This document shows, one piece after another, positions 1 to 56,756 of a stretch of DNA of 64,000 bases. The stretch spans positions 21,801 through 85,800 of the forward strand of contig JBMOPW010000003.1 in NCBI GenBank assembly GCA_049322915.1. Direction: 5' to 3'. This DNA is from Candidatus Zhuqueibacterota bacterium (GTDB taxonomy: Bacteria; Zhuqueibacterota; Zhuqueibacteria; Thermofontimicrobiales; Thermofontimicrobiaceae). Numbering within the stretch: position 1 is the first letter of the stretch; the number at the start of each line of letters is the position of its first letter. The notes beneath the pieces were generated by a model. The model was not told the origin of the DNA, did not search any database, and was given only the letters and a program-made list of their open reading frames with translations. A program made the position numbers and the translations under genes.

Positions 1-2091
1 GGTGACGATTTTATACTCGCCGGGATTGATGGGATAGTCGGTCCCTGTCCCCGGAAATTGCCAGATTGAAGAAATTCCATCGATATCCGAAGTCAATCGG
101 CAGACAATTTTACCATCGAGGTATTCTGTGGTTGCGCCAGCATTGTACAACTCGATGTATTGGCATTCCAATTCGGTCATGGCGTAAGCGTTATAGAAAA
201 TTTCATTCATCTTCACCATGCTTGTCGTGACATAGGCGTCGTCCACATATTTCAGGATTCTCCCACCATAGGCCGCAGCCCAGAGAACATAATTGTTTTT
301 GGGAGCGATGCCTTTGATGAAATCACCGTACAAACCGACAGCCTGCAACGTCCAGTTCGTTCCACCGTCCGTCGTGGTGAGAATTGCGCCGTCATCGCCG
401 ACGATCCAGCCTTCCAATGGATTTTTGAAATAGACAGCTTCCAATTCTTCGGTTGTTGGAGAAGTTTGAAGCGTCCAGGTGGCGCCGCCATCGCCGGAGA
501 ATTGAATGACGCCATTTTCACCAACAGCCCAGCCATGAGTTGCGTCCAGGAAATATGCGCCATTGATGTCCCTCTCGCCACTCACTGTGAATGTGGATAA
601 ATTCCATGTTGCGCCGCCATTGGTGGTGTAATACAATGTATTGTCGGCGCCGCCGATGAAGCCGTTGTTTTCGTCCAGCATGAAAATTGTGTACAGCGTC
701 TCATTGGGCAGGCCAGTCTGCGCAGTCCAGTTGAGACCGGCATCGGTGGTTTTAAAAACTATCCCTTTTGCTGCTATGATCCAGCCAGTGGTATCATTGA
801 CAAAATCCACTTTGCGCAACCATTCGCCGGTCAGACCCTTACCCTGCAAATGCCAGGTAGCGCCGGCATCCTCAGTCCTGGCAATGAACCCGCCGGTTCC
901 GACAGTCCAGCCTGTGTCAGAGTTCACGAAATCCATACCCCACAATTGCGTGGCAATGGTGTTGTCCGCGACGAGGTATCGCGATTTCCAGGTGTATCCG
1001 CCGTCTGTGGTTTCCATCAGCGAGCTGTTATAACCCATGGCAATGGTGTGGCCTTCGTCGATGGTATAAATATAATACAGATTATGACCAAAAATATCGA
1101 CCAGTAATTCCCAGGTTTGGCCCAGGTTGTTGCTGTAGGCAATCGTCTCGTACTCGGCGACCCATGCTTGTTGGCCCACCAGAGCGACGCAGTTGGGACC
1201 GATGCCCAAGGCTACAGGTTGTTGAATCCAGGTACTGCCATCGGTCGTGGAAAACACTGTCCCATCATCGCCAACAGCGATGCCCGTGGTGTCATTAGAA
1301 AAGTCGATATCCCACATATTTTCATAGGTCTCTTCGGTTGGCGTGTACAGTGTCCAGGTATCGCCGCCGTTTTCAGTCCAGGCGAAGACGCTTTTCAGGA
1401 GGGATGTGGGGAAACCATCGCCGACCAACCAGGCTTTCGTGGCAGAGACCATTTTTACCGCATTATAATCTTTTGCCTGAATCTCGGCCACGGTCGTTGC
1501 CGGGGTCCAGGTAGTTCCCCAGTCGGAACTGTGGATAATGGTTTGCGCCTTTCCAACGGCAATGACTTTATCCATGCCAAAGTTGGAAGCGCCGTACAGG
1601 TCGTTGGCAGTGCCGCTTGTCTGCGTCACCCAGGTCTGGCCGTCGGTGGTTGCGCCAATTTTGCCGCCGTCAGCGACAGCGATGGCATGCATTTCATCGG
1701 CGACCACGATGTCGTTCATATCGGCTGTGGCGTCAAACGGCGTTTGGGTGACCCATGTTTCGCCGCCATCCGTGGATTTCAAAATCGTTCCATTTTCTCC
1801 AACGATCCATCCGGTCGTCTCATTAATGAAAACAACTTTGTTCAGGGTTTGGGATGTTCCGGACAGTCCCAATTCCCGCGTGATACCGCCATCCAGTGTT
1901 TTGAGGACCATACCATTCAGTCCTACAAACCAGCCGGTTTTTCCATCGGGCAGGAAAAATACATCGGTCACGGTACTGGGGACATCCGTCCGCGTCTCGA
2001 TTGTCCATGTCCCACCGGCAAAAGAAATTTCCGCGGAAATCAATAATGCTAAACAACTCAAGAGAACAAAAAACGTTAGCCCTCTCTTCAT
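1..2091 (-). CDS. Secreted BNR/Asp-box (Ycf48-like) beta-propeller repeat protein with C-terminal lamin-tail-like segment; partial, 3' end beyond window
   Basis: Manual minus-strand translation from ATG at 2091-2089: MKRGLTFFVLLSCLALLISAEISFAGG (signal peptide), then repeated xxDGGxTW units (KSTDGGETW, TTDGQTW, SSDWGTTW, TENGGDTW, STTDGSTW). Frame stays open to position 1; last codons read ECQYIELYNAGATTEYLDGKIVCRLTSD. Absent from ORF track because there is no stop codon in the window. Confidence 0.7.
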   Translation of the reverse strand, partial: MKRGLTFFVLLSCLALLISAEISFAGGTWTIETRTDVPSTVTDVFFLPDGKTGWFVGLNGMVLKTLDGGITRELGLSGTSQTLNKVVFINETTGWIVGENGTILKSTDGGETWVTQTPFDATADMNDIVVADEMHAIAVADGGKIGATTDGQTWVTQTSGTANDLYGASNFGMDKVIAVGKAQTIIHSSDWGTTWTPATTVAEIQAKDYNAVKMVSATKAWLVGDGFPTSLLKSVFAWTENGGDTWTLYTPTEETYENMWDIDFSNDTTGIAVGDDGTVFSTTDGSTWIQQPVALGIGPNCVALVGQQAWVAEYETIAYSNNLGQTWELLVDIFGHNLYYIYTIDEGHTIAMGYNSSLMETTDGGYTWKSRYLVADNTIATQLWGMDFVNSDTGWTVGTGGFIARTEDAGATWHLQGKGLTGEWLRKVDFVNDTTGWIIAAKGIVFKTTDAGLNWTAQTGLPNETLYTIFMLDENNGFIGGADNTLYYTTNGGATWNLSTFTVSGERDINGAYFLDATHGWAVGENGVIQFSGDGGATWTLQTSPTTEELEAVYFKNPLEGWIVGDDGAILTTTDGGTNWTLQAVGLYGDFIKGIAPKNNYVLWAAAYGGRILKYVDDAYVTTSMVKMNEIFYNAYAMTELECQYIELYNAGATTEYLDGKIVCRLTSDIDGISSIWQFPGTGTDYPINPGEYKIVT

Positions 2092-2129
2092 AAAAACCTC
2101 CGTTTGTATTGAGTTAAACATAAAAAAAA

Positions 2130-2159
2130 TGAATATATGAGAGTCGCTTCATATATTCA
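2130..2159. promoter_or_regulatory. Perfect 11-bp inverted repeat (tgaatatatga-N8-tcatatattca) about 40 bp upstream of the BNR gene start; candidate operator or 5' stem-loop
   Basis: Arms are exact reverse complements, read directly from sequence. Confidence 0.3.
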
Positions 2160-2652
2160 GGTCAAAGTTTAGCTACATAATTAGACAGATAAATGATTTT
2201 TGATAACCGTGATTCACGTTTTGATTTGTCTGAGAGTGGAAGTCATTAAATTTATGTTGAAAAGGAAGCATTAATAATATAAAAATATTATTCATTATGT
2301 CAAGAAGTATTTTTAATCAGGAACAGGCTTACACCAAAAGTGGACGCTCATACGTCGGATAAAATAGGCAATTTGAGCATGAAAGGGAAGCTCTGCCCCG
2401 GTGTGCATCAATGTCGGCGATAGATTGTATCAGAATTCGATGCGTGATCCGATCTCCTTTTGTCCGTCCGCCGATGTCATTAAGTGCAGCTGTACCAGCG
2501 ACGTTTTCGAGCGCCAGCCTCAGATCAATGCGCGTACCGGTTGTGGGCTCGATTTGTGCGAACACGTGATTGCGCCTGGTGTTGAGTTTAGCATTTAGCC
2601 TGAATTTCTAAGATGAAATGTCAAATGAGCGTACAGCATATTATTTTAGTAT

Positions 2653-2681
2653 GGAGTGAATTGACACAATCAATTCACTCC
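2653..2681. other. 12-bp perfect palindrome (ggagtgaattga-N5-tcaattcactcc) followed by a T-rich run; terminator-like hairpin of unknown role
   Basis: Read directly from sequence. Confidence 0.3.
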
Positions 2682-2997
2682 ATATATTTTTAGAAATTAA
2701 ATAGAGTCTGTCCGAAAACTGCTATTATTGACCTCACCCGAACCCTCTCCGAAAAGGCTTACCCTTACCCATATCTTTTCTAACGCAGAGACCGCAGAGG
2801 TACGCAAAGTTTTGGTATTGAAAAAAAGCTGTTTGCAAATTTATGAAACCATGTATTTTCCTGGTTATTCTGGTCTTCTGTGACTATGGGTGAACATGAT
2901 TTTCAATGTTTGATTGAAAATTTTAAAATCACTCTGGCCAATTCAACGCGGATCTTTTCTCTGCGCCCTTCGCGACCTCTGCGTTTCATTTGATGTG

Positions 2998-3105
2998 TTA
3001 ACCCTACTACGTCACATAGATTTTTTATCGTTGTATATTGTATTTTTGATAGATGAAAAACTCAACATAGTGTGATAAATTTACTAAATGACGTTGTAGG
3101 GTTAA
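2998..3105 (+). mobile_element. MITE family B copy 1 (108 bp, 17-bp terminal inverted repeats ttaaccctac[t/a]acgtca)
   Basis: 107/108 identical to the reverse complement of 40419-40526; ends are mutual reverse complements; no ORF. Confidence 0.7.
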
Positions 3106-3248
3106 TATCCCCCAACTTATGGGCAAGGGTAAGCCCAAAAGGCGAGGGAGAACAGATGGTCCCCTTCTTGCCCGCAGGGTAAGAAGGGGTTTTGGGGATG
3201 AGCTCTGACGTAGTGAAGTTTGAAAATATCACCCCCATAGCTAATTCA

Positions 3249-3410
3249 GCCTGCATTATTCATAGTATTTTTAGAGGAGGCTGGCTAACCTGAATGGTGC
3301 TCTTTTTAGAATAAACGTATAAAAACTGAGTTTCAAAATAGCTTAGCCTTTAGCTAATTGAAAATCTCAATGTTGACTCAAATTCTGAGCAAGTTCATGA
3401 ATAATTCAGG
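3249..3410 (-). mobile_element. MITE family A copy 1 (about 160 bp, terminal inverted repeat gcctg[a/c]attattcat), inverted relative to the other two copies
   Basis: Near-full-length reverse-complement match to 53139-53298 with a few mismatches; TIRs present. Confidence 0.7.
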
Positions 3411-3494
3411 TTAGGTGTTTTCGGACAGACTCTATTGAGCTAAACTTGATTATAAAAATCCATTTTAAAAATTTAGGTTTAGTAAAAAATAAAC

Positions 3495-4880
3495 TTATCT
3501 TCGTGCCGAATTGGCTACAGCGGCGAACATCTCTTTTGTGAACGCCACTTCTTTTTTGTGGTCAACAAGGCATGCCGGGTAGTCGGACAGCCCTTTCCCC
3601 GACTCCAGGCCGTGAATGGTCGCCGGGGTAAAATCTGACAATTCAGAGACCCATTTTCGAATGTAGCGGCATTCCCCGTCAAATTTTTTTTGCTGATTCC
3701 AGGGATTGAAAATGCGGAAATAGGGCTGAGCGTCGCAGCCAATGGATGCTGCCCATTGCCAGTTTCCGTTGTTGACGCAAGGATCATAATCCAGCAGGTG
3801 ACGCGCAAAATAGGCCTCGCCCCAGCGCCAGTCAATGCGCAAATCCTTCACCAGAAAGGACGCGACAATCATGCGCAGGCGATTGTGCATGAATCCGGTT
3901 TCATTCAACTCGCGCATGCCGGCATCCACAATGGGATAGCCGGTTTGCCCCTGACACCACGCCTGGAATTTATCAGCGTTGTTTTCCCAGACCAGCCCGT
4001 CGTATTTTCGTTTGAACGCATGCCCGAAGACATGGGGGAAGAAGTACCCGATCAGCGTGAAAAAATCCCGCCAGTAAAATTGCCTGATGAGCGGATGGTG
4101 TTCGCCCAACTGCTGAAAGACGCTGTAGTAGGCTTCCCGGATGGAACAGGCGCCAAATTTGAAATGCACTGAAAGTCGTGTGGTGGCGTCCAGTTCAGGC
4201 ACATCGCGCTCTGTCTCATACTGCCGGAACCGCTCAAGGCCGGATAGAATTTCCATTGCGCGGGATCGCCCTGCCGGAACCGAAGCAAGCTCGCTGTCCG
4301 GGGGTAAAACTTTCCCGAATATTTCGTCGTGAGACTGTCCCGGGCGCTTTGCTGATAAATTGGTAGGCACAGAAGAATTGGGCAACGGCACGGCCAGTTT
4401 CGAGGCATGATTGAAAAATGGCGTGAAGACTGTGTACGGGAAACCATCTTTTTTTAACGCAGCGCCGGGATCTGTCAGCAACGCATCGTGCAAGCCGATG
4501 AAAGGGGTATTTAACTTTTCACAGGCGGCGTTCAACTGCGCGTCGCGCTGCCGGCTGAATGGGGTGTAATCGTGATTGAAAAACACGGCATCGATGGCAT
4601 GCCCGGCCAGAATCTGCTCCAGCACACGGGCCGGGTCGCCGAAGAACAGAGATAAGCCACTGTCCATGTGAGTCAATTGAACATGAAGGTCTTGCAGCGC
4701 TTTCACCATGAAAAGCAGGCCCGGTCTGCTCCGATAGGGATGCGGTTCAACCTGTCGCGGATCAAAAATAAAACAGGGAATCACTTCCCGCGATCGCAGG
4801 AGCGCCTCGCGCAACCCGGAATTGTCTTCGAGCCGGAGGTCGCGTCGGAAAATAAACAGGGAGGTGTTGAATTTTTTCAT
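3495..4880 (-). CDS. phr: Deoxyribodipyrimidine photolyase / cryptochrome family protein
   Basis: 461-aa ORF; N-terminus FIFRRDLRLEDNSGL and C-terminal FAD-binding region (WRWGEAYFARHLLDYDPCVNNGNWQWAAS) typical of the photolyase family; ATG with GGAG upstream. Confidence 0.9.
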   Translation of the reverse strand: MKKFNTSLFIFRRDLRLEDNSGLREALLRSREVIPCFIFDPRQVEPHPYRSRPGLLFMVKALQDLHVQLTHMDSGLSLFFGDPARVLEQILAGHAIDAVFFNHDYTPFSRQRDAQLNAACEKLNTPFIGLHDALLTDPGAALKKDGFPYTVFTPFFNHASKLAVPLPNSSVPTNLSAKRPGQSHDEIFGKVLPPDSELASVPAGRSRAMEILSGLERFRQYETERDVPELDATTRLSVHFKFGACSIREAYYSVFQQLGEHHPLIRQFYWRDFFTLIGYFFPHVFGHAFKRKYDGLVWENNADKFQAWCQGQTGYPIVDAGMRELNETGFMHNRLRMIVASFLVKDLRIDWRWGEAYFARHLLDYDPCVNNGNWQWAASIGCDAQPYFRIFNPWNQQKKFDGECRYIRKWVSELSDFTPATIHGLESGKGLSDYPACLVDHKKEVAFTKEMFAAVANSARR

Positions 4881-10333: not shown

Positions 10334-12220
10334 TCATTTTATGACTGTCAGTTTATACCACTGAGCACCCCTGCAAGTTTCGATGCGATACAGGTAAACG
10401 CCGGAAGCGACAGATTGACCTGCGTTATTTTGCCCGTTCCAGAGCACGCGGTTCCAGCCGGGATTCGCGATGAGATTGGGCCAGGATTTTATCAGTTGGC
10501 CCAGCGGATTGAAAATCTGCACGTTTGCCGGGCCCGGTCGTTCAGCATAAAACTGAATGGTCGTGGCGTTGTTGAGCGGATTGGGATAGTTGAAGCTGGT
10601 CTCATATTTTTCAGGCAAGGCATCAGGAACAATTTCCACGGCCGTTGAATTGGGCAACCATTCCATCAGTTTTTCCCGCTCCATCTCGCCGCCGCTGGAG
10701 CTATTGGCGACATTGTACGTCCACCACATCCCGGTGACGCCGCCGCCGCTGATGGTGGTTGAAAACGCCTGGTTGGACATGGCGCCGAAATAACGCGCCT
10801 GGTTGCCGGGATATTCTTTATCATCCCAGGTGCAGTCAATCGGAACCCATCCGTAATTGGGAAAATAGACCTGCTGCCAGCGATGAAAGATGCGGTCTTC
10901 GTACGGGAGGTCGTCGCGAAGATGCCCGCCAGCTTCCATTCGCGCCGGGATGCCGGCGGCGCGGCACAGCGCCACAAACAAAAACGTGTATTCAGAACAG
11001 GAGCCGGTGCCGCGGCTGAGCACTATCGGAGCGGTGTCCCAACTGCTGTCGTTGATGTATTCGATGTGCGAAATCACGTAATCGTGGATATTGCGCACCT
11101 GCCAGTACAGATTGCTTTCATCGCCAATGGCCTCTTGCGCTGCATTACGAATGACAGGATGGGTTATGTCGTAATACTCGCCGTCCGGCGTGTACATGGT
11201 GATGATGGATTGCGGAATGTCCGTCAATTCGCCAACACTGTCAGGGTGAAGGAAATAGCGGATGTTGTACAGCGTGGCCGGCACAGACCACTGGTACAAT
11301 TTTTCTTCGCCCGCCGGAACGGACTCTTCGTAATAGGCAATTTGTTGACCGAAGTAGTCAGTATAAAAAGTGTGCGGTTCATCCCTGAACTGAAGCGTAT
11401 CTTCCAATTGCTGGTAGACGGCTTCGAACGGGCAGGCTAAGTAGGTCTGCAAATTCATCACGCTGGAGCCGACATTTTTGATGGTGACAGTGTACCTGAT
11501 TTTCACCAGAAATGGATCGGTGATTTGATATTTTTCTGTTCCGGCGATGGAGATTTTATAAATCCGGTCGTGCTCGTAATCGGCATTCCAGAGGAAATGG
11601 CCGTCGAAAGCCAGTCCGTAGGAATAGGTACCCGGCGCATTCAGGATAGTGAAAATCCTGCCGCGATCTGTTTCCAGCCGGTAGATTTCATCTTTATCGT
11701 AATCCGCGCACCATAGATATTCGCCGTCCCAGGCTAATCCGCGATTGTAGCCGCCGGGCGAAATGAGCGTGTCGGCGTAGCTGCCGGTTTCCGGGTTTAG
11801 TTTGAAGATGCGCTTCGCCTGGCTGTCCACGTACCAGAGAAACTCGCCGTCCCAAGTTAGCCCGCGGGGATTTTCGGTTCCCACCGGAACAATTTTGGTG
11901 ATGGAACTATCTTCGACGTCGATTTGGCAGAGCTGGTCGTGCCCGTTATCCGAGCACCAGAGGAACTGGCCGTCCCAGGCCAGGCCGTTTATCGTGGCGT
12001 TTGCCGGGCTGGGCAGGGAATAGAGTACCTGTCCGGTCTGCGGATCGATCTTGTAAATTTGGTTTGTGCCAATATCCGCATTCCACAAAAATTCGCCGTC
12101 CCAGGCTAACCCGGTGGGGCGACTCCCGGGCGAAGGGAAAAAATCCAGGACAGCACCCATCTGGGCGTGACCAGTTGAAAAGAGAAAAAGAATAATCCCG
12201 ATGAGCTTCATTGGTTTCAT
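10334..12220 (-). CDS. Secreted beta-propeller repeat / transglutaminase-like cysteine protease-fold protein with T9SS C-terminal sorting domain
   Basis: Signal peptide; 5-6 repeats of GLAWDG(E/Q)FLW; transglutaminase-like core GSCSEYTFLFVALCRAAGIPAR with downstream H and D (HRWQQVYFPNYGWVPID); C-terminus NYPNPLNNATTIQF...GVYLYRI. Confidence 0.75.
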   Translation of the reverse strand: MKPMKLIGIILFLFSTGHAQMGAVLDFFPSPGSRPTGLAWDGEFLWNADIGTNQIYKIDPQTGQVLYSLPSPANATINGLAWDGQFLWCSDNGHDQLCQIDVEDSSITKIVPVGTENPRGLTWDGEFLWYVDSQAKRIFKLNPETGSYADTLISPGGYNRGLAWDGEYLWCADYDKDEIYRLETDRGRIFTILNAPGTYSYGLAFDGHFLWNADYEHDRIYKISIAGTEKYQITDPFLVKIRYTVTIKNVGSSVMNLQTYLACPFEAVYQQLEDTLQFRDEPHTFYTDYFGQQIAYYEESVPAGEEKLYQWSVPATLYNIRYFLHPDSVGELTDIPQSIITMYTPDGEYYDITHPVIRNAAQEAIGDESNLYWQVRNIHDYVISHIEYINDSSWDTAPIVLSRGTGSCSEYTFLFVALCRAAGIPARMEAGGHLRDDLPYEDRIFHRWQQVYFPNYGWVPIDCTWDDKEYPGNQARYFGAMSNQAFSTTISGGGVTGMWWTYNVANSSSGGEMEREKLMEWLPNSTAVEIVPDALPEKYETSFNYPNPLNNATTIQFYAERPGPANVQIFNPLGQLIKSWPNLIANPGWNRVLWNGQNNAGQSVASGVYLYRIETCRGAQWYKLTVIK

Positions 12221-16015: not shown

Positions 16016-17629
16016 TCATTCGAGCGGTGACCATTCACCGTATTGTTCGATGTAAATGCGACATTTATCTTTGGATGTCCATCGATTATTGAAGTTGTAT
16101 GTCCAGTCGAGATAATCGGAGCCCCCGCCGCCAGTGGTAGTAATGATATAGCGGCAGGCGATATTGCCAATGCCGGCTGCCTGTTCGCCGGGTCTGGCTT
16201 TGTCGCCTTTGTTGGCGTCGAAGGGGATCCAGCCGTAATTTGGCAGATACACCTCGCACCATCGATGATAGACTTCGTCGAGGCTGGCGTCGTCGCCCCG
16301 TTGCGATACAGCGCCGACATAACGGGCAGGAAGCCCTGCGGCGCGGCACAGCGCGATGAATGAAAATGAATATTCGGAACAGGATGCCGTGCCTCGTTTC
16401 AAGACGGTCGTTGCAGTGTTCCACCCGCCGACTGGCTTTAAATTGTACGTGAGATTTTCGATGAGATAATTAAAAATCTTCCGCGCCATCCAGTAGGGAT
16501 TCTGCTCGTCCCCAACGATTTTTTTTGCCAGGTTCTGAATGAAGGGTTCGTGGACGTTGAGTTTCTTTCCATCAGCAAGATACGTTTTCAATATTTCAAC
16601 CGGCACACTTTCGAGTGCGCCCACTTTAACCGGATCAATGAAATATTCGGCCGCCCAGATCGTGGCATCAATGGTCATCGTCGCCCGAAAAAATTCCCCG
16701 CTTTTAAGATTTTTCACATTGAAATAAGCGACCTTTTGGCCCCATTGGTCAGTCAGGATTTTTTCCGGTTCAGGGACAAATGTGACGGGGCGAGACAGTT
16801 GCTGGTTATCCCTGTTTTCCGGGATGGCGAGATACACATCTGCCGAGATGACGGTGCCTGGTCCGTAATTTCTGAAATCGATGGTATTCTCCAGCCGTTG
16901 TTTCTTGGGGGACAACTTTGTCAGAAACACCGGATCATCGATTTTTATCCTATAAATTTTGTCCGCTTGATAATCCACATTCCAGAGAAAAGCGCCATCC
17001 CAGGCGAGTCCGCGGGCGTATTGGTCCGGTGCGTGAATGGACCCGATGACCATGCCGCTGTTCCGATCCATGCGATAAATAGCATTCTCGCCCCGATCGG
17101 CGATCCACAAACAGTGCCCGTCAAAAGCCAATCCGTCAGGATCGTCGGCTGGCGATGGGAAATTGTGAATCATCATGCCGTCCTCAGGGTCAAGACTGAG
17201 CACCAGATCCAGTTTGTCATCGACGACCCAGAGCAATGTACCATCCCAGCAAATGTCTTTGGGATTATCGGTGCAGGCTTCGATCACGCGTTCAGCGATT
17301 CCGGTTTCAATATTCATTCTGTAAAGAAATCGCTCCTTATCATCCATCGCCCAGAGATGCGTGCCATCCCAGGCCAAACCCGTCGGACTGAAACCGGGCG
17401 CGGGAAAAGTGTGAATGACGAGGCCATTATTCGGATCGATCTGATACAGATTATCAGTTTTTCGGTCAGCAACCCAGAGGTATTTTCCGTCAAACGCAAG
17501 CCCCGTCGGATGGTCTCCGGGTGAATTCATTGTGTATACGATTTCACCAACAAAAGCAAAACTCACCTGTGAGCAAAGGCTCATCCAACTGAGGAAGCCA
17601 AGCATAAACCATATTCTCAAGGTTTTCAT
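16016..17629 (-). CDS. Beta-propeller repeat / transglutaminase-like protein, paralogue of 10334-12220 lacking the T9SS C-terminal domain
   Basis: 537-aa ORF; signal peptide; GLAFDGKYLW/GLAWDGTHLW repeats; core GTASCSEYSFSFIALCRAAGLPAR plus HRWCEVYLPNYGWIPFD; GAGGAG RBS. Confidence 0.75.
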   Translation of the reverse strand: MKTLRIWFMLGFLSWMSLCSQVSFAFVGEIVYTMNSPGDHPTGLAFDGKYLWVADRKTDNLYQIDPNNGLVIHTFPAPGFSPTGLAWDGTHLWAMDDKERFLYRMNIETGIAERVIEACTDNPKDICWDGTLLWVVDDKLDLVLSLDPEDGMMIHNFPSPADDPDGLAFDGHCLWIADRGENAIYRMDRNSGMVIGSIHAPDQYARGLAWDGAFLWNVDYQADKIYRIKIDDPVFLTKLSPKKQRLENTIDFRNYGPGTVISADVYLAIPENRDNQQLSRPVTFVPEPEKILTDQWGQKVAYFNVKNLKSGEFFRATMTIDATIWAAEYFIDPVKVGALESVPVEILKTYLADGKKLNVHEPFIQNLAKKIVGDEQNPYWMARKIFNYLIENLTYNLKPVGGWNTATTVLKRGTASCSEYSFSFIALCRAAGLPARYVGAVSQRGDDASLDEVYHRWCEVYLPNYGWIPFDANKGDKARPGEQAAGIGNIACRYIITTTGGGGSDYLDWTYNFNNRWTSKDKCRIYIEQYGEWSPLE

Positions 17630-40418: not shown

Positions 40419-40526
40419 TTAACCCTACAACGTCATTTAGTAAATTTATCACAATATGTTGAGTTTTTCATCTATCAAAAATACAATATACAACGATAAA
40501 AAATCTATGTGACGTAGTAGGGTTAA
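40419..40526 (-). mobile_element. MITE family B copy 2 (108 bp), inverted relative to copy 1, 18 bp upstream of the rtcB ATG
   Basis: Reverse complement of 2998-3105 with a single mismatch. Confidence 0.7.
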
Positions 40527-52879: not shown

Positions 52880-53602
52880 ATGAGAGCAACTATCCTTTTC
52901 CTGACGGTCGCCATCTTGCTGGCCGGTGCTCTGTCAACTTCGAACGGACAGGAAGCAGGGGAGATGAAGCGATCGGACTATGGCGTCTTCAGCTTCTGGC
53001 AGAGCGTGACGCTGCCCGGCGCGCCGGGGATCATCTACGATGCCATCACCGGGGATATCAGCGGATGGTGGGATCACACCTTCTCCGGAAAGCCGGCGCG
53101 TTTTTTCATCGAGCCCAAACCCGGCGGCGGCTTCTATCCTGAATTATTCATGAACTTGCTCAGAATTTGAGTCAACATTCAGATTTTCAATTAGCTAAAA
53201 GCTAAGCTATTTTGAAACTAAGTTTTTGTACGTTTATTCTAAAAAGAGCACCATTCAGGTTAGCCAGCCTCCTTTAAAAATACTATGAATAATGCAGGCT
53301 ATGAAATTTTTGATGAAAGCGGCGATGGCGTGTTACACGCCACGGTCATTTATGCCCAGCGCGGCAAACTGCTGCGGTTCGAGGGCCCGCTCGGCCTTTC
53401 CGGCAGAGCCGTGACGCTCGTGTGCAGCTATTCTTTCGCTGCGGTCGGCGCCGATTCCACAAAACTGATATTGGACGTCCATATAGCCGGTGAAATCGAT
53501 GCCGCCACAGCGCAGATCGTGAAAAGCGTCTGGCATCATTTCATCATCGAACAATTTAAACCCTACATCGAATTGGGCAAGCACCTGAAGAAAAAGGACT
53601 GA
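52880..53602 (+). pseudogene. Secreted SRPBCC (AHSA1/CalC-like) protein gene interrupted in-frame by a MITE insertion
   Basis: ORF 52880-53170 (MRATILFLTVAILLAGAL... IIYDAITGDISGWWDH ... KPGGGFY) and ORF 53285-53602 (EIFDESGDGVLHATVIYAQRGKLLRFEGPLG...) share one frame; removing 53139-53300 joins them into a single SRPBCC-like reading frame. Confidence 0.7.
53139..53298 (+). mobile_element. MITE family A copy 2, flanked by TA dinucleotides (candidate target-site duplication)
   Basis: TIR tcctgaattattcat / atgaataatgcaggc; TA at 53137-53138 and 53299-53300; matches 3249-3410 (inverted) and 56464-56616. Confidence 0.7.
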
Positions 53603-56299: not shown

Positions 56300-56463
56300 C
56301 TCCGCGTTTTGACCTGTTGAACCGGTGATCCGTATCGTGTCTGTGGCTGTTTTGGCCTGATTTTTTAATCTCAAATAAAGCAATAGAAATTTGAAGAATT
56401 ACCACCAGGACTCGAAGTCGCTACGTATCACTAATGAAAACAGAAGCTGTTTAGCCTGAATTA

Positions 56464-56616
56464 TTCATGAATTCTCCAATAGGCCAACTTAACATTATGT
56501 TTTCATAATGTGTGAATGTATATGCAAAATCAAACTCAGTTTTATATTCAAATTTTAAATTTATGCACCATTCAGGTTATCCCGCTTCCTTTAAAAATAC
56601 AATGAATAATGCGGGT
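56464..56616 (+). mobile_element. MITE family A copy 3 (diverged interior), about 140 bp upstream of the ABC ATPase gene
   Basis: Both termini match copy 2 (gcctgaattattcatgaa ... caccattcaggtta.cc.gc.tcctttaaaaatac.atgaataatgc.gg); TA flanks at 56462-56463 and 56617-56618. Confidence 0.55.
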
Positions 56617-56756
56617 TAGAAATTTTTAGACAAAAAAATGAAAAAGTTTTCTCATAAAGTTGATAATAACATTTTGTAAATTCATTCTTTGAGTCTTAGC
56701 GCCTTTGTGGCTATTGCATTATCCGGGTTGATAACCTATTCATCCGAAAAGCGACC

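Follow-up and report, generated by a model that had tools for sequence, protein, structure and literature searches.

The stretch of DNA analysed here comprises 64,000 nucleotides (nt) from a Candidatus Zhuqueibacterota bacterium and is referred to below as the window. Between its photolyase gene and a gene for a BNR surface protein lies a block of repeated sequence at 2575-3436. Our analysis suggests that this block is probably a lineage-specific nest of non-autonomous MITEs (miniature inverted-repeat transposable elements) and small palindromic repeats located in a dead gene. A perfect 20-nt inverted repeat bounds a 737-bp unit within the block, and this unit encloses one copy each of two further repeat families, MITE-A and MITE-B. 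These features, together with the other copies of the two families, are as follows:

2575-3436, no strand assigned: repeat block specific to this lineage, with a G+C content of 38% (window, 50%), missing from the orthologous loci of relatives.
2700-2719, plus strand: left arm of the outer inverted repeat, the same as the left ends of foldback elements in the genome CAJVYQ01 (see below) over up to 24 nt.
3417-3436, minus strand: right arm of the outer inverted repeat, a second copy of the left-end type (AATAGAG...).
2998-3105, no strand assigned: MITE-B1, with a 100-bp core (3002-3101), terminal inverted repeats of 13-17 nt (CCCTACNACGTCA) and TTAA on both sides.
40419-40526, no strand assigned: MITE-B2, the second copy, in the archease-rtcB intergenic region.
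3247-3413, no strand assigned: MITE-A1, with a 163-bp core (3249-3411) and CA/TA flanks, 3 nt inside the right outer arm.
53135-53301, no strand assigned: MITE-A2, 96% identical to MITE-A1, intergenic, with TA/TA flanks.
56452-56618, no strand assigned: MITE-A3, about 80% identical to MITE-A1, intergenic, with TA/TA flanks.

The outer 20-mer, AATAGAGTCTGTCCGAAAAC, occurs exactly twice in the window. No further site was found even when 3 mismatches were allowed, and 100 shuffled sequences gave no match. The two arms are complementary at 20 of 20 positions against a chance expectation of 0, so the unit has the terminal inverted repeats of a MITE. We then scanned 2575-3500 for ungapped inverted repeats (match +1, mismatch -2) and compared the scores with those of 100 dinucleotide shuffles, which reached a maximum of 13. 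Four pairs exceeded all 100 shuffles: the outer pair (score 20), the pair 2756-2773/3118-3135, a palindrome to the left of the unit, and the ends of MITE-B (score 14). A single DNA strand of 2690-3446 folds into one structure in which all stems are strictly nested (-122 kcal/mol, z = -8.5). A preliminary description of this DNA had reported the perfect inverted repeat and one enclosed copy of each MITE family, and both observations were reproduced.

The additional copies of MITE-A and MITE-B were located by a blastn search of 2100-3500 against the window. MITE-B1 and MITE-B2 are identical at 107 of 108 positions (99%); both are bordered by TTAA/TTAA, and the flanks beyond are unrelated. MITE-A1 and MITE-A2 are identical at 160 of 167 positions (96%). 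The ends of MITE-A read NCCTG[C/A]ATTATTCAT, of which CCTG[C/A]ATTATTCAT is the 14-nt repeat. With three and two window copies, respectively, at unrelated intergenic sites and with sharp TA and TTAA borders, MITE-A and MITE-B are independently mobile and recently active. MITE-A combines TA flanks with terminal inverted repeats, as a Tc1/IS630-type derivative does, and its flanks presumably point to an IS630/Tc1-type transposase. MITE-B has the TTAA flanks and the CCC-starting terminal repeat of a TTAA-targeting element, which we take to point to a piggyBac/IS1380-like or IS5-like transposase. Since there are only two copies of MITE-B, its TTAA may be part of the terminal repeat. A Pfam scan of 43 open reading frames (ORFs) across the window detected no transposase, RAYT or recombinase, and the ORFs inside the block had no Pfam match. 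The elements are therefore non-autonomous here and must rely in trans on transposases from other parts of the genome. No candidate for a parental DDE transposase of MITE-A was found in the available sequence.

Matches of the three end types to viral contigs were absent or attributable to chance: those of MITE-A covered just 17-21 nt, and the single match of MITE-B lay inside an 875-aa ORF. Three segments of the block were also compared with a plasmid database (blastn, distant mode), and none of them matched. MITE-B2 lies in the 383-bp archease-rtcB spacer, 18 nt ahead of the rtcB start codon. Archease and rtcB are a pair that is usually expressed together.

In a metagenome-assembled genome (MAG) assigned to Candidatus Zhuqueibacterota, one protein matches the window photolyase with 100% identity. 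Orthologous loci of relatives were compared, and three of them keep the order of the genes. At L012, from the closest relative (photolyase 85% identical), photolyase is followed by an intact 197-aa DUF4287/DUF5655 gene, which begins 56 bp past the photolyase stop, and by a gene for a 1234-aa PSII_BNR/Por_Secre_tail protein. At L013 and L014 (photolyase 69% identical), 284 bp separate photolyase from the BNR gene. At L015 (photolyase 69% identical), the order is not kept and unrelated genes come after photolyase. No inverted repeat of at least 16 nt and no 20-mer-like site was found in the intervals of L012, L013 and L014. The orthologous sites are thus empty: the whole block is missing from L012, L013 and L014, the exact empty site being obscured by deletion. 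Two features of the window outside the block bear on this comparison:

2401-2574, minus strand: remnant of a DUF4287/DUF5655 pseudogene, 174 bp, corresponding to residues 127-184 of 197, found by tblastn with the L012 gene.
2276-2303, minus strand: promoter (TTGACA-16-TATATT, 11/12 in the promoter scan) that is likely native to the BNR/PSII_BNR surface-protein gene, intact and outside the repeat block.

The remnant is 71% identical in amino-acid sequence to the L012 protein (E = 1e-22). It lacks the 5' 378 bp of the gene, in whose position the repeat block stands, and also the 3' end. Nucleotide homology to L012 in blastn ends at 2574 and restarts at about 3501; between these points the window has 926 bp of repeats where L012 has 436 bp, the gene's first 378 bp among them. 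The block is therefore a gain of this lineage, and it coincides with the death of a gene. The interval between the BNR and photolyase genes had been described as 1.4 kb without genes, which proved incorrect, since the remnant of a gene is still recognisable there, with the block in place of its 5' part. The accompanying proposal of a repeated insertion target was supported: three independent repeat families, namely MITE-A, MITE-B and that of the 20-mer, are present together with further palindromes, and none occurs in the orthologous intervals of the three relatives. The promoter of the BNR gene lies within a 54-nt segment (2264-2317) that is 83% conserved in L013 and L014, and the same sequence is present in L012. 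A terminator-like hairpin at 2343-2356 (minus strand) stands directly downstream of the remnant. It is probably the original terminator of the photolyase-DUF4287 transcript, in which case photolyase read-through would now cross the entire repeat block.

As the block is made of repeats, an assembler might have threaded repeats from elsewhere into a gap at this position, and a short-read assembly of another run does break inside MITE-A. However, that contig (L001, assembled independently from run SRR32167788) is 100% identical to the window from 9194 down to 3388. It spans the right arm and 29 nt of the unit with no branch at the arm, and it ends 26 nt inside MITE-A, as expected of a multi-copy repeat. 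In addition, both flanks of the block are syntenic with the relatives, and MITE-A1 differs from MITE-A2 at 7 of 167 positions and more widely from MITE-A3, so it is a collapsed copy of neither. An assembly artefact is therefore extremely improbable.

Further repeats and signals were identified inside or beside the block:

2594-2606, plus strand: solo MITE-A-type terminus TTTAGCCTGAATT, which matches the MITE-A3 end and stands 20 nt away from the breakpoint of the gene.
2603-2698, no strand assigned: small foldback unit with weak 18-nt arms (2603-2620/2681-2698, 78% complementary) around the palindrome at 2650-2684.
2743-2773, plus strand: left arm of a second-level inverted repeat, G+C-rich, of the CCCTCTCC...CTTACCC type, with its partner at 3118-3148.
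3118-3148, plus strand: right arm of the second-level inverted repeat, partner of 2743-2773.
2782-2808, plus strand: arm of a weak third-level inverted repeat with CGCAGAGA-type octamer repeats and its partner at 2956-2985.
2956-2985, plus strand: partner arm of the third-level inverted repeat, pairing with 2782-2808.
3161-3189, plus strand: 13-bp G+C-rich hairpin followed by TTTT, terminator-like on the plus strand only.

The match of TTTAGCCTGAATT to the MITE-A3 end (56450-56462) is exact over 13 nt, while about 0.1 such matches were expected with one mismatch allowed. This terminus, which had previously been noted near 2596-2606, probably marks a truncated further insertion of the MITE-A type. 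The palindrome has perfect 15-nt arms (2650-2664/2670-2684) around a 5-nt loop and scored 15, above all shuffles. It had been recorded before as a 12-bp palindrome at 2653-2681; its existence was confirmed, but its arms are longer. The partial inverted similarity that had been reported between 2738-2776 and 3116-3150 is also real and extends over 2743-2773/3118-3148. Its 31-nt arms are 77% complementary, and the score of the 18-nt core (2756-2773/3118-3135), 15, lies above that of all shuffles.

Within the perfect palindrome, a promoter-like site (2661-2688, plus strand, TTGACA-16-TATATT, 11/12) is directed into the repeat unit, and the promoter scan of the 2603-2698 foldback region also returned a terminator-like site. 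The hairpin at 3161-3189, having just 4 T, fell under the threshold of the terminator scan. The promoter-like site and the hairpin with its TTTT (3161-3193, plus strand) are about 500 nt apart on the same strand. Judged by these motifs, they could define a transcript of about 0.5 kb antisense to photolyase read-through.

We next considered whether the outer 20-mer belongs to a wider family. The exact 20-mer was sought in 185,579 species-representative genomes (596 Gb), where, by our own estimate, about one chance match is expected over both strands. It was found at six loci, five in the MAG CAJVYQ01 and one in a Bathyarchaeota ORF. The matches L005 and L009 (the latter from the metagenome scan described below) lie inside ORFs and were rejected as chance. 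CAJVYQ01 is labelled Deferribacteres, and its proteins are labelled Bacteroidota in another submission; because of these conflicting labels, we treated it as an FCB-group bacterium. Wherever it occurs in this MAG, the 20-mer forms the left end of small foldback elements, of which there are at least six. Four exact copies and a diverged sixth have an imperfect partner arm 116-165 bp away, and the fifth (L002) has no right end. All copies fold into a long closing stem around inner hairpins, and five of the six sit 40-300 nt upstream of a gene start. The identity between window and MAG at this end extends to 22-24 nt (TTAAATAGAGTCTGTCCGAAAACT). L002, L003 and L004 7584-7699 have the left end and about 100 nt of interior in common, and their flanks are unrelated. 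As far as sequence comparison goes, an interior common to unrelated loci is the signature of a dispersed mobile repeat, here a MITE-like family. The interiors of L004 4784-4924, L006 and L007 are unrelated, and each contains a G+C-rich hairpin. The window unit is built like the MAG copies, with an arm, a short AT-rich spacer and a G+C-rich inverted repeat, but in the window the centre of this inner repeat is occupied by further repeats. The preliminary description had named two findings that would speak against its proposal, a 20-mer confined to this site and relatives without repeats. Of these, only the absence of repeats from the relatives was observed; the 20-mer is not confined to the window, since it ends the elements of the foldback family in CAJVYQ01.

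Two observations on CAJVYQ01 concern other repeats. At L006 2318-2332, ATAATTCAGGTTA followed by TA is the same as the right end of MITE-A with its TA flank; this short match may indicate that both FCB-group genomes have MITE-A elements or the parent of that family. G+C-rich hairpins of the form gtcattcc...ggaatgac or gtcattgcgag...gcaatc recur in CAJVYQ01, inside and outside the 20-mer elements. Examples are L002 620-700, L004 4815-4840, L006 6650-6710 and L007 5150-5180, and an Anaerolineales contig has them as well (L010 3200-3330). These hairpins give spurious ORFs and look like a separate, widespread class of repeats similar to repetitive extragenic palindromic (REP) sequences.

The 737-bp unit had also been proposed to be a larger composite non-autonomous element, in which two inverted 20-nt ends would let a transposase carry the whole segment with its passengers. 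The perfect arms, both of the left-end type, are consistent with this proposal, as are the MAG copies with the same ends around quite different interiors. However, neither the unit nor any part of its non-MITE interior turned up a second time in the window, the species-representative genomes or the metagenome contigs of the Joint Genome Institute (JGI), and the latter two collections contain no paired exact 20-mers at this spacing. The other members of the family are 116-165 bp long. The flanks show no target duplication, and MITE-A and MITE-B demonstrably move alone. We therefore consider a composite element unlikely.

An inverton would explain the arms differently. A site-specific invertase would flip the 697-bp segment between them and thereby switch a promoter or terminator between photolyase and the BNR surface-protein gene, whose product is of the type exported by the type IX secretion system. 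Known invertons, such as the invertible promoters of Bacteroides and others, have a perfect inverted repeat of about 20 bp, a few hundred bp apart, upstream of a surface-protein gene, and the same repeat may be found at several loci. The window unit resembles them in each of these respects. The BNR orthologues carry a Por_Secre_tail domain, identical ends enclose variable interiors at several MAG loci (mostly upstream of gene starts, as noted), and the hairpin at 3161-3189 is a strand-specific terminator-like signal within the unit. In contrast to invertons, no invertase was found, and no recombinase is among the 43 window ORFs scanned. The BNR gene has its own conserved promoter outside the unit, with the pseudogene and a terminator-like site in between. 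Most MAG copies have arms that differ at 2-5 of 16 positions with a fixed left/right asymmetry, and such decay speaks against ongoing arm exchange. The three MAG copies with a common interior at unrelated loci are dispersed repeats, and the independent contig L001 has the same orientation as the window and continues 29 nt past the arm without a branch. An inverton is thus very unlikely.

Two other kinds of element were rejected. In integron attC sites the RYYYAAC/GTTRRRY cores belong at the outer ends, and by our own reading of the sequence AAAC/GTTT stand here at the inner ends. A retron or diversity-generating retroelement was ruled out, as a reverse transcriptase gene is absent.

Collectively, these results favour a nest of small mobile repeats, and a history of the block can be proposed. 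The outer 737-bp unit would belong to a MITE-like foldback family whose defining end is (TA)AATAGAGTCTGTCCGAAAAC. A member of this family, and probably also a MITE-A-type element, would have landed in or beside the DUF4287 gene, at a dispensable place downstream of photolyase. Deletions adjoining insertion sites are common, and the 5' part of the gene would have been lost with the insertion. This now-neutral, AT-rich and palindrome-rich DNA would then have gathered later insertions that inflated the interior of the unit. MITE-B would have inserted at TTAA and MITE-A at a TA-type site located 3 nt inward of the right arm. The unit also contains at least one more inverted-repeat element, at 2743-3148, which has other repeats in its own centre. 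We infer that MITE-A and MITE-B are the youngest components, because they are 96-99% identical to other copies.

Several observations weigh against this history. No target duplication is readable around the outer unit, whose flanks (...aaatta / gagcta...) contain no direct repeat, and none is consistent across the seven copies of the outer family. TAAATA stands on both sides of three MAG copies and is identical each time, and it may belong to the element itself. The window contains just one pair of outer arms. Both of these belong to the left-end type, unlike the arms of three MAG copies, whose right end is distinct; the window unit may instead consist of two head-to-head left ends. The interiors of the window unit, L004 4784-4924, L006 and L007 are mutually unrelated, which is unusual for a classical MITE family. 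The unit is also bigger than a usual MITE, and without MITE-A and MITE-B about 460 bp are left, compared to 116-165 bp in the MAG copies. One flank of MITE-A1 is CA instead of TA. The third-level repeat (2782-2985; 19 nt, 79% complementary) does not rise above the shuffles and is at chance level, and its 17-19-nt matches to the MAG hairpins L003 2851-2925 and L006 2402-2487 have permuted arms. For none of the three families did the available sequence yield a parent insertion sequence with the same ends, and no autonomous element ending like the outer unit was found in the window or the fetched loci.

The repeats can be compared with known systems. Correia elements of Neisseria are about 100-155 bp long, have 26-nt terminal inverted repeats and a TA duplication, and are intergenic; they form co-transcribed hairpins, and some carry outward promoters. 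Like such bacterial MITEs, the window repeats are short, non-coding, intergenic and multi-copy, have terminal inverted repeats of about 20 nt, fold into long hairpins and vary in presence between related genomes, and MITE-A has TA-type flanks. In contrast to Correia elements, they are of unrelated sequence and from another phylum, and they have no known parent element or transposase. The outer family differs further in its heterogeneous interiors and in having no readable target duplication.

MITEs inserted in MITEs are well described in plant genomes, reportedly by Jiang and Wessler in 2001. As in those nests, unrelated small terminal-repeat elements are stacked in the block, the younger ones (96-99% identical) inside an older frame. 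Unlike those nests, this one lies in a compact bacterial genome, is contained within 0.9 kb and replaces part of a gene. The nesting may reflect a preference for certain targets, TA and TTAA within AT-rich palindromes, or simply that dead DNA tolerates insertions. The block also recalls the RAYT-mobilised REP sequences and their compound forms, REPINs and bacterial interspersed mosaic elements, in its clustered intergenic palindromic hairpins, and G+C-rich hairpin modules occur in the MAG copies and the window unit. In contrast to these systems, the 20-mer arm is not palindromic, no RAYT (Y1 transposase) was found among the scanned ORFs, and the terminal inverted repeats of MITE-A and MITE-B are of the classical kind, flanked by TA and TTAA, respectively.

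A scan of JGI metagenomes for the 20-mer yielded four contigs, L008, L009, L010 and L011. L008, L010 and L011 represent one orthologous locus of Anaerolineales (Chloroflexota) upstream of speH-speE, which encode S-adenosylmethionine decarboxylase and spermidine synthase, respectively. At all three, the 20-mer starts 7 nt past a promoter, TTGACA-16-TATAAA. Sixteen further orthologous loci (L022-L037) revealed a conserved leader of about 105 nt:

L008 310-440; L010 2919-3116 (minus strand); L011 805-915; L022-L037 upstream of speH (for example, L022 1290-1500): speH leader.

The leader has a 17-bp closing stem (AGAGUCUGUCCGAAAAC / GUUUUCGGAUGGGUUCU) and two inner helices, followed by a U-rich tract. 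The stem is maintained by G-U pairs and compensatory changes, with both sides changed in 8 of 32 pairs (6 distinct sequences). No Rfam match was found for the leader at E up to 1. This comparison identifies the speH leader as a vertically inherited RNA rather than a mobile repeat. L008, L010 and L011 were accordingly dropped as members of the window family, the 16 orthologous loci showing that a vertically inherited stem coincides with the 20-mer in one lineage. A comparison of L010, L008 and L011 gave leader lengths of 91, 113 or 178 nt, owing to strain-specific insertions just inside the 3' arm. In one lineage (L030-L037), a further insert of about 190 nt separates the leader from the speH start codon and contains a hairpin of the 'cacagagatcgcagagttcacagagac' repeat type. 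Apparently undescribed, the leader is a candidate cis-regulatory RNA, either a riboswitch or an attenuator, of polyamine synthesis.

The window arm and the Anaerolineales stem are identical over 21-22 nt and have the same stem limits. A chance 20-mer match is expected at this database size; a chance match landing on a stem arm with the same boundaries as the 20-mer is not. Run SRR32167788 yielded both the window organism (L001) and a leader-carrying Anaerolineales bacterium (L027), indicating that the two lineages share a habitat. A common origin of the FCB foldback family and the speH leader, as a domesticated MITE or as a mobile hairpin derived from an RNA element, with the window unit transcribed as RNA, is nevertheless a conjecture to which we give little credence.

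The leader bears on a related explanation of the window unit, in which the unit would be a structured non-coding RNA, kin to the speH leader, transcribed from the promoter-like site at 2661-2688 with the arms as its closing stem. The left arm follows that site at a distance of 11 nt. In L008, L010 and L011, an identical stretch of 21-22 nt serves as the 5' arm of the closing stem of the leader, which covariation supports, immediately downstream of a promoter. The window unit also has the terminator-like hairpin at 3161-3189 on the plus strand. Against this, the interior of the unit consists of MITEs with independent copies, and the block is missing from all three relatives. No promoter stands upstream of the MAG copies, and wobble pairing does not account for the mismatches in their arms. 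A covariance model of the leader matched the MAG elements through the stem only, on either strand (E = 0.002-1), and left the window unit unmatched; about one chance 20-mer match is expected at that database size by our estimate. The covariance-model scan suggested in the preliminary description also gave no support: Rfam 15 returned no match for the whole window at gathering score, a search of 2050-3550 at E up to 5 returned only generic matches to microRNA-precursor hairpins far under the cut-offs, and nine related loci searched by E-value gave no support either. A structured RNA is thus highly improbable, and a nest of mobile repeats in a dead gene remains the favoured explanation of the block.

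Two unrelated features were noted in the course of this work. Repeats with a 123-bp period, corresponding to 41-residue beta-propeller blades, occur in the window at 11558-12113 and 16952-17374. They belong to two paralogous secreted proteins with a transglutaminase-like core (10334-12220 and 16016-17629). In the FCB-group MAG, a 587-aa ORF is preceded, at a distance of 52 nt, by a fluoride riboswitch (L006 2579-2638; 47 bits, above gathering score).

For annotation, these results mean that 2401-2574 should be labelled a pseudogene and the small ORFs within the block treated as spurious, and the region breaks short-read assemblies. A search for literature on mobile elements in Zhuqueibacterota or on nested bacterial MITEs found nothing usable, and a paper on Zhuqueibacterota does not mention mobile elements. 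The importance for wider biology is modest, the block being an ordinary kind of bacterial genome clutter, and the speH-speE leader, a by-product, may be worth more. For Zhuqueibacterota, a recently named uncultured phylum, the block provides three previously undescribed families of small mobile repeats and what is probably a clean case of gene decay beside a nested MITE insertion.

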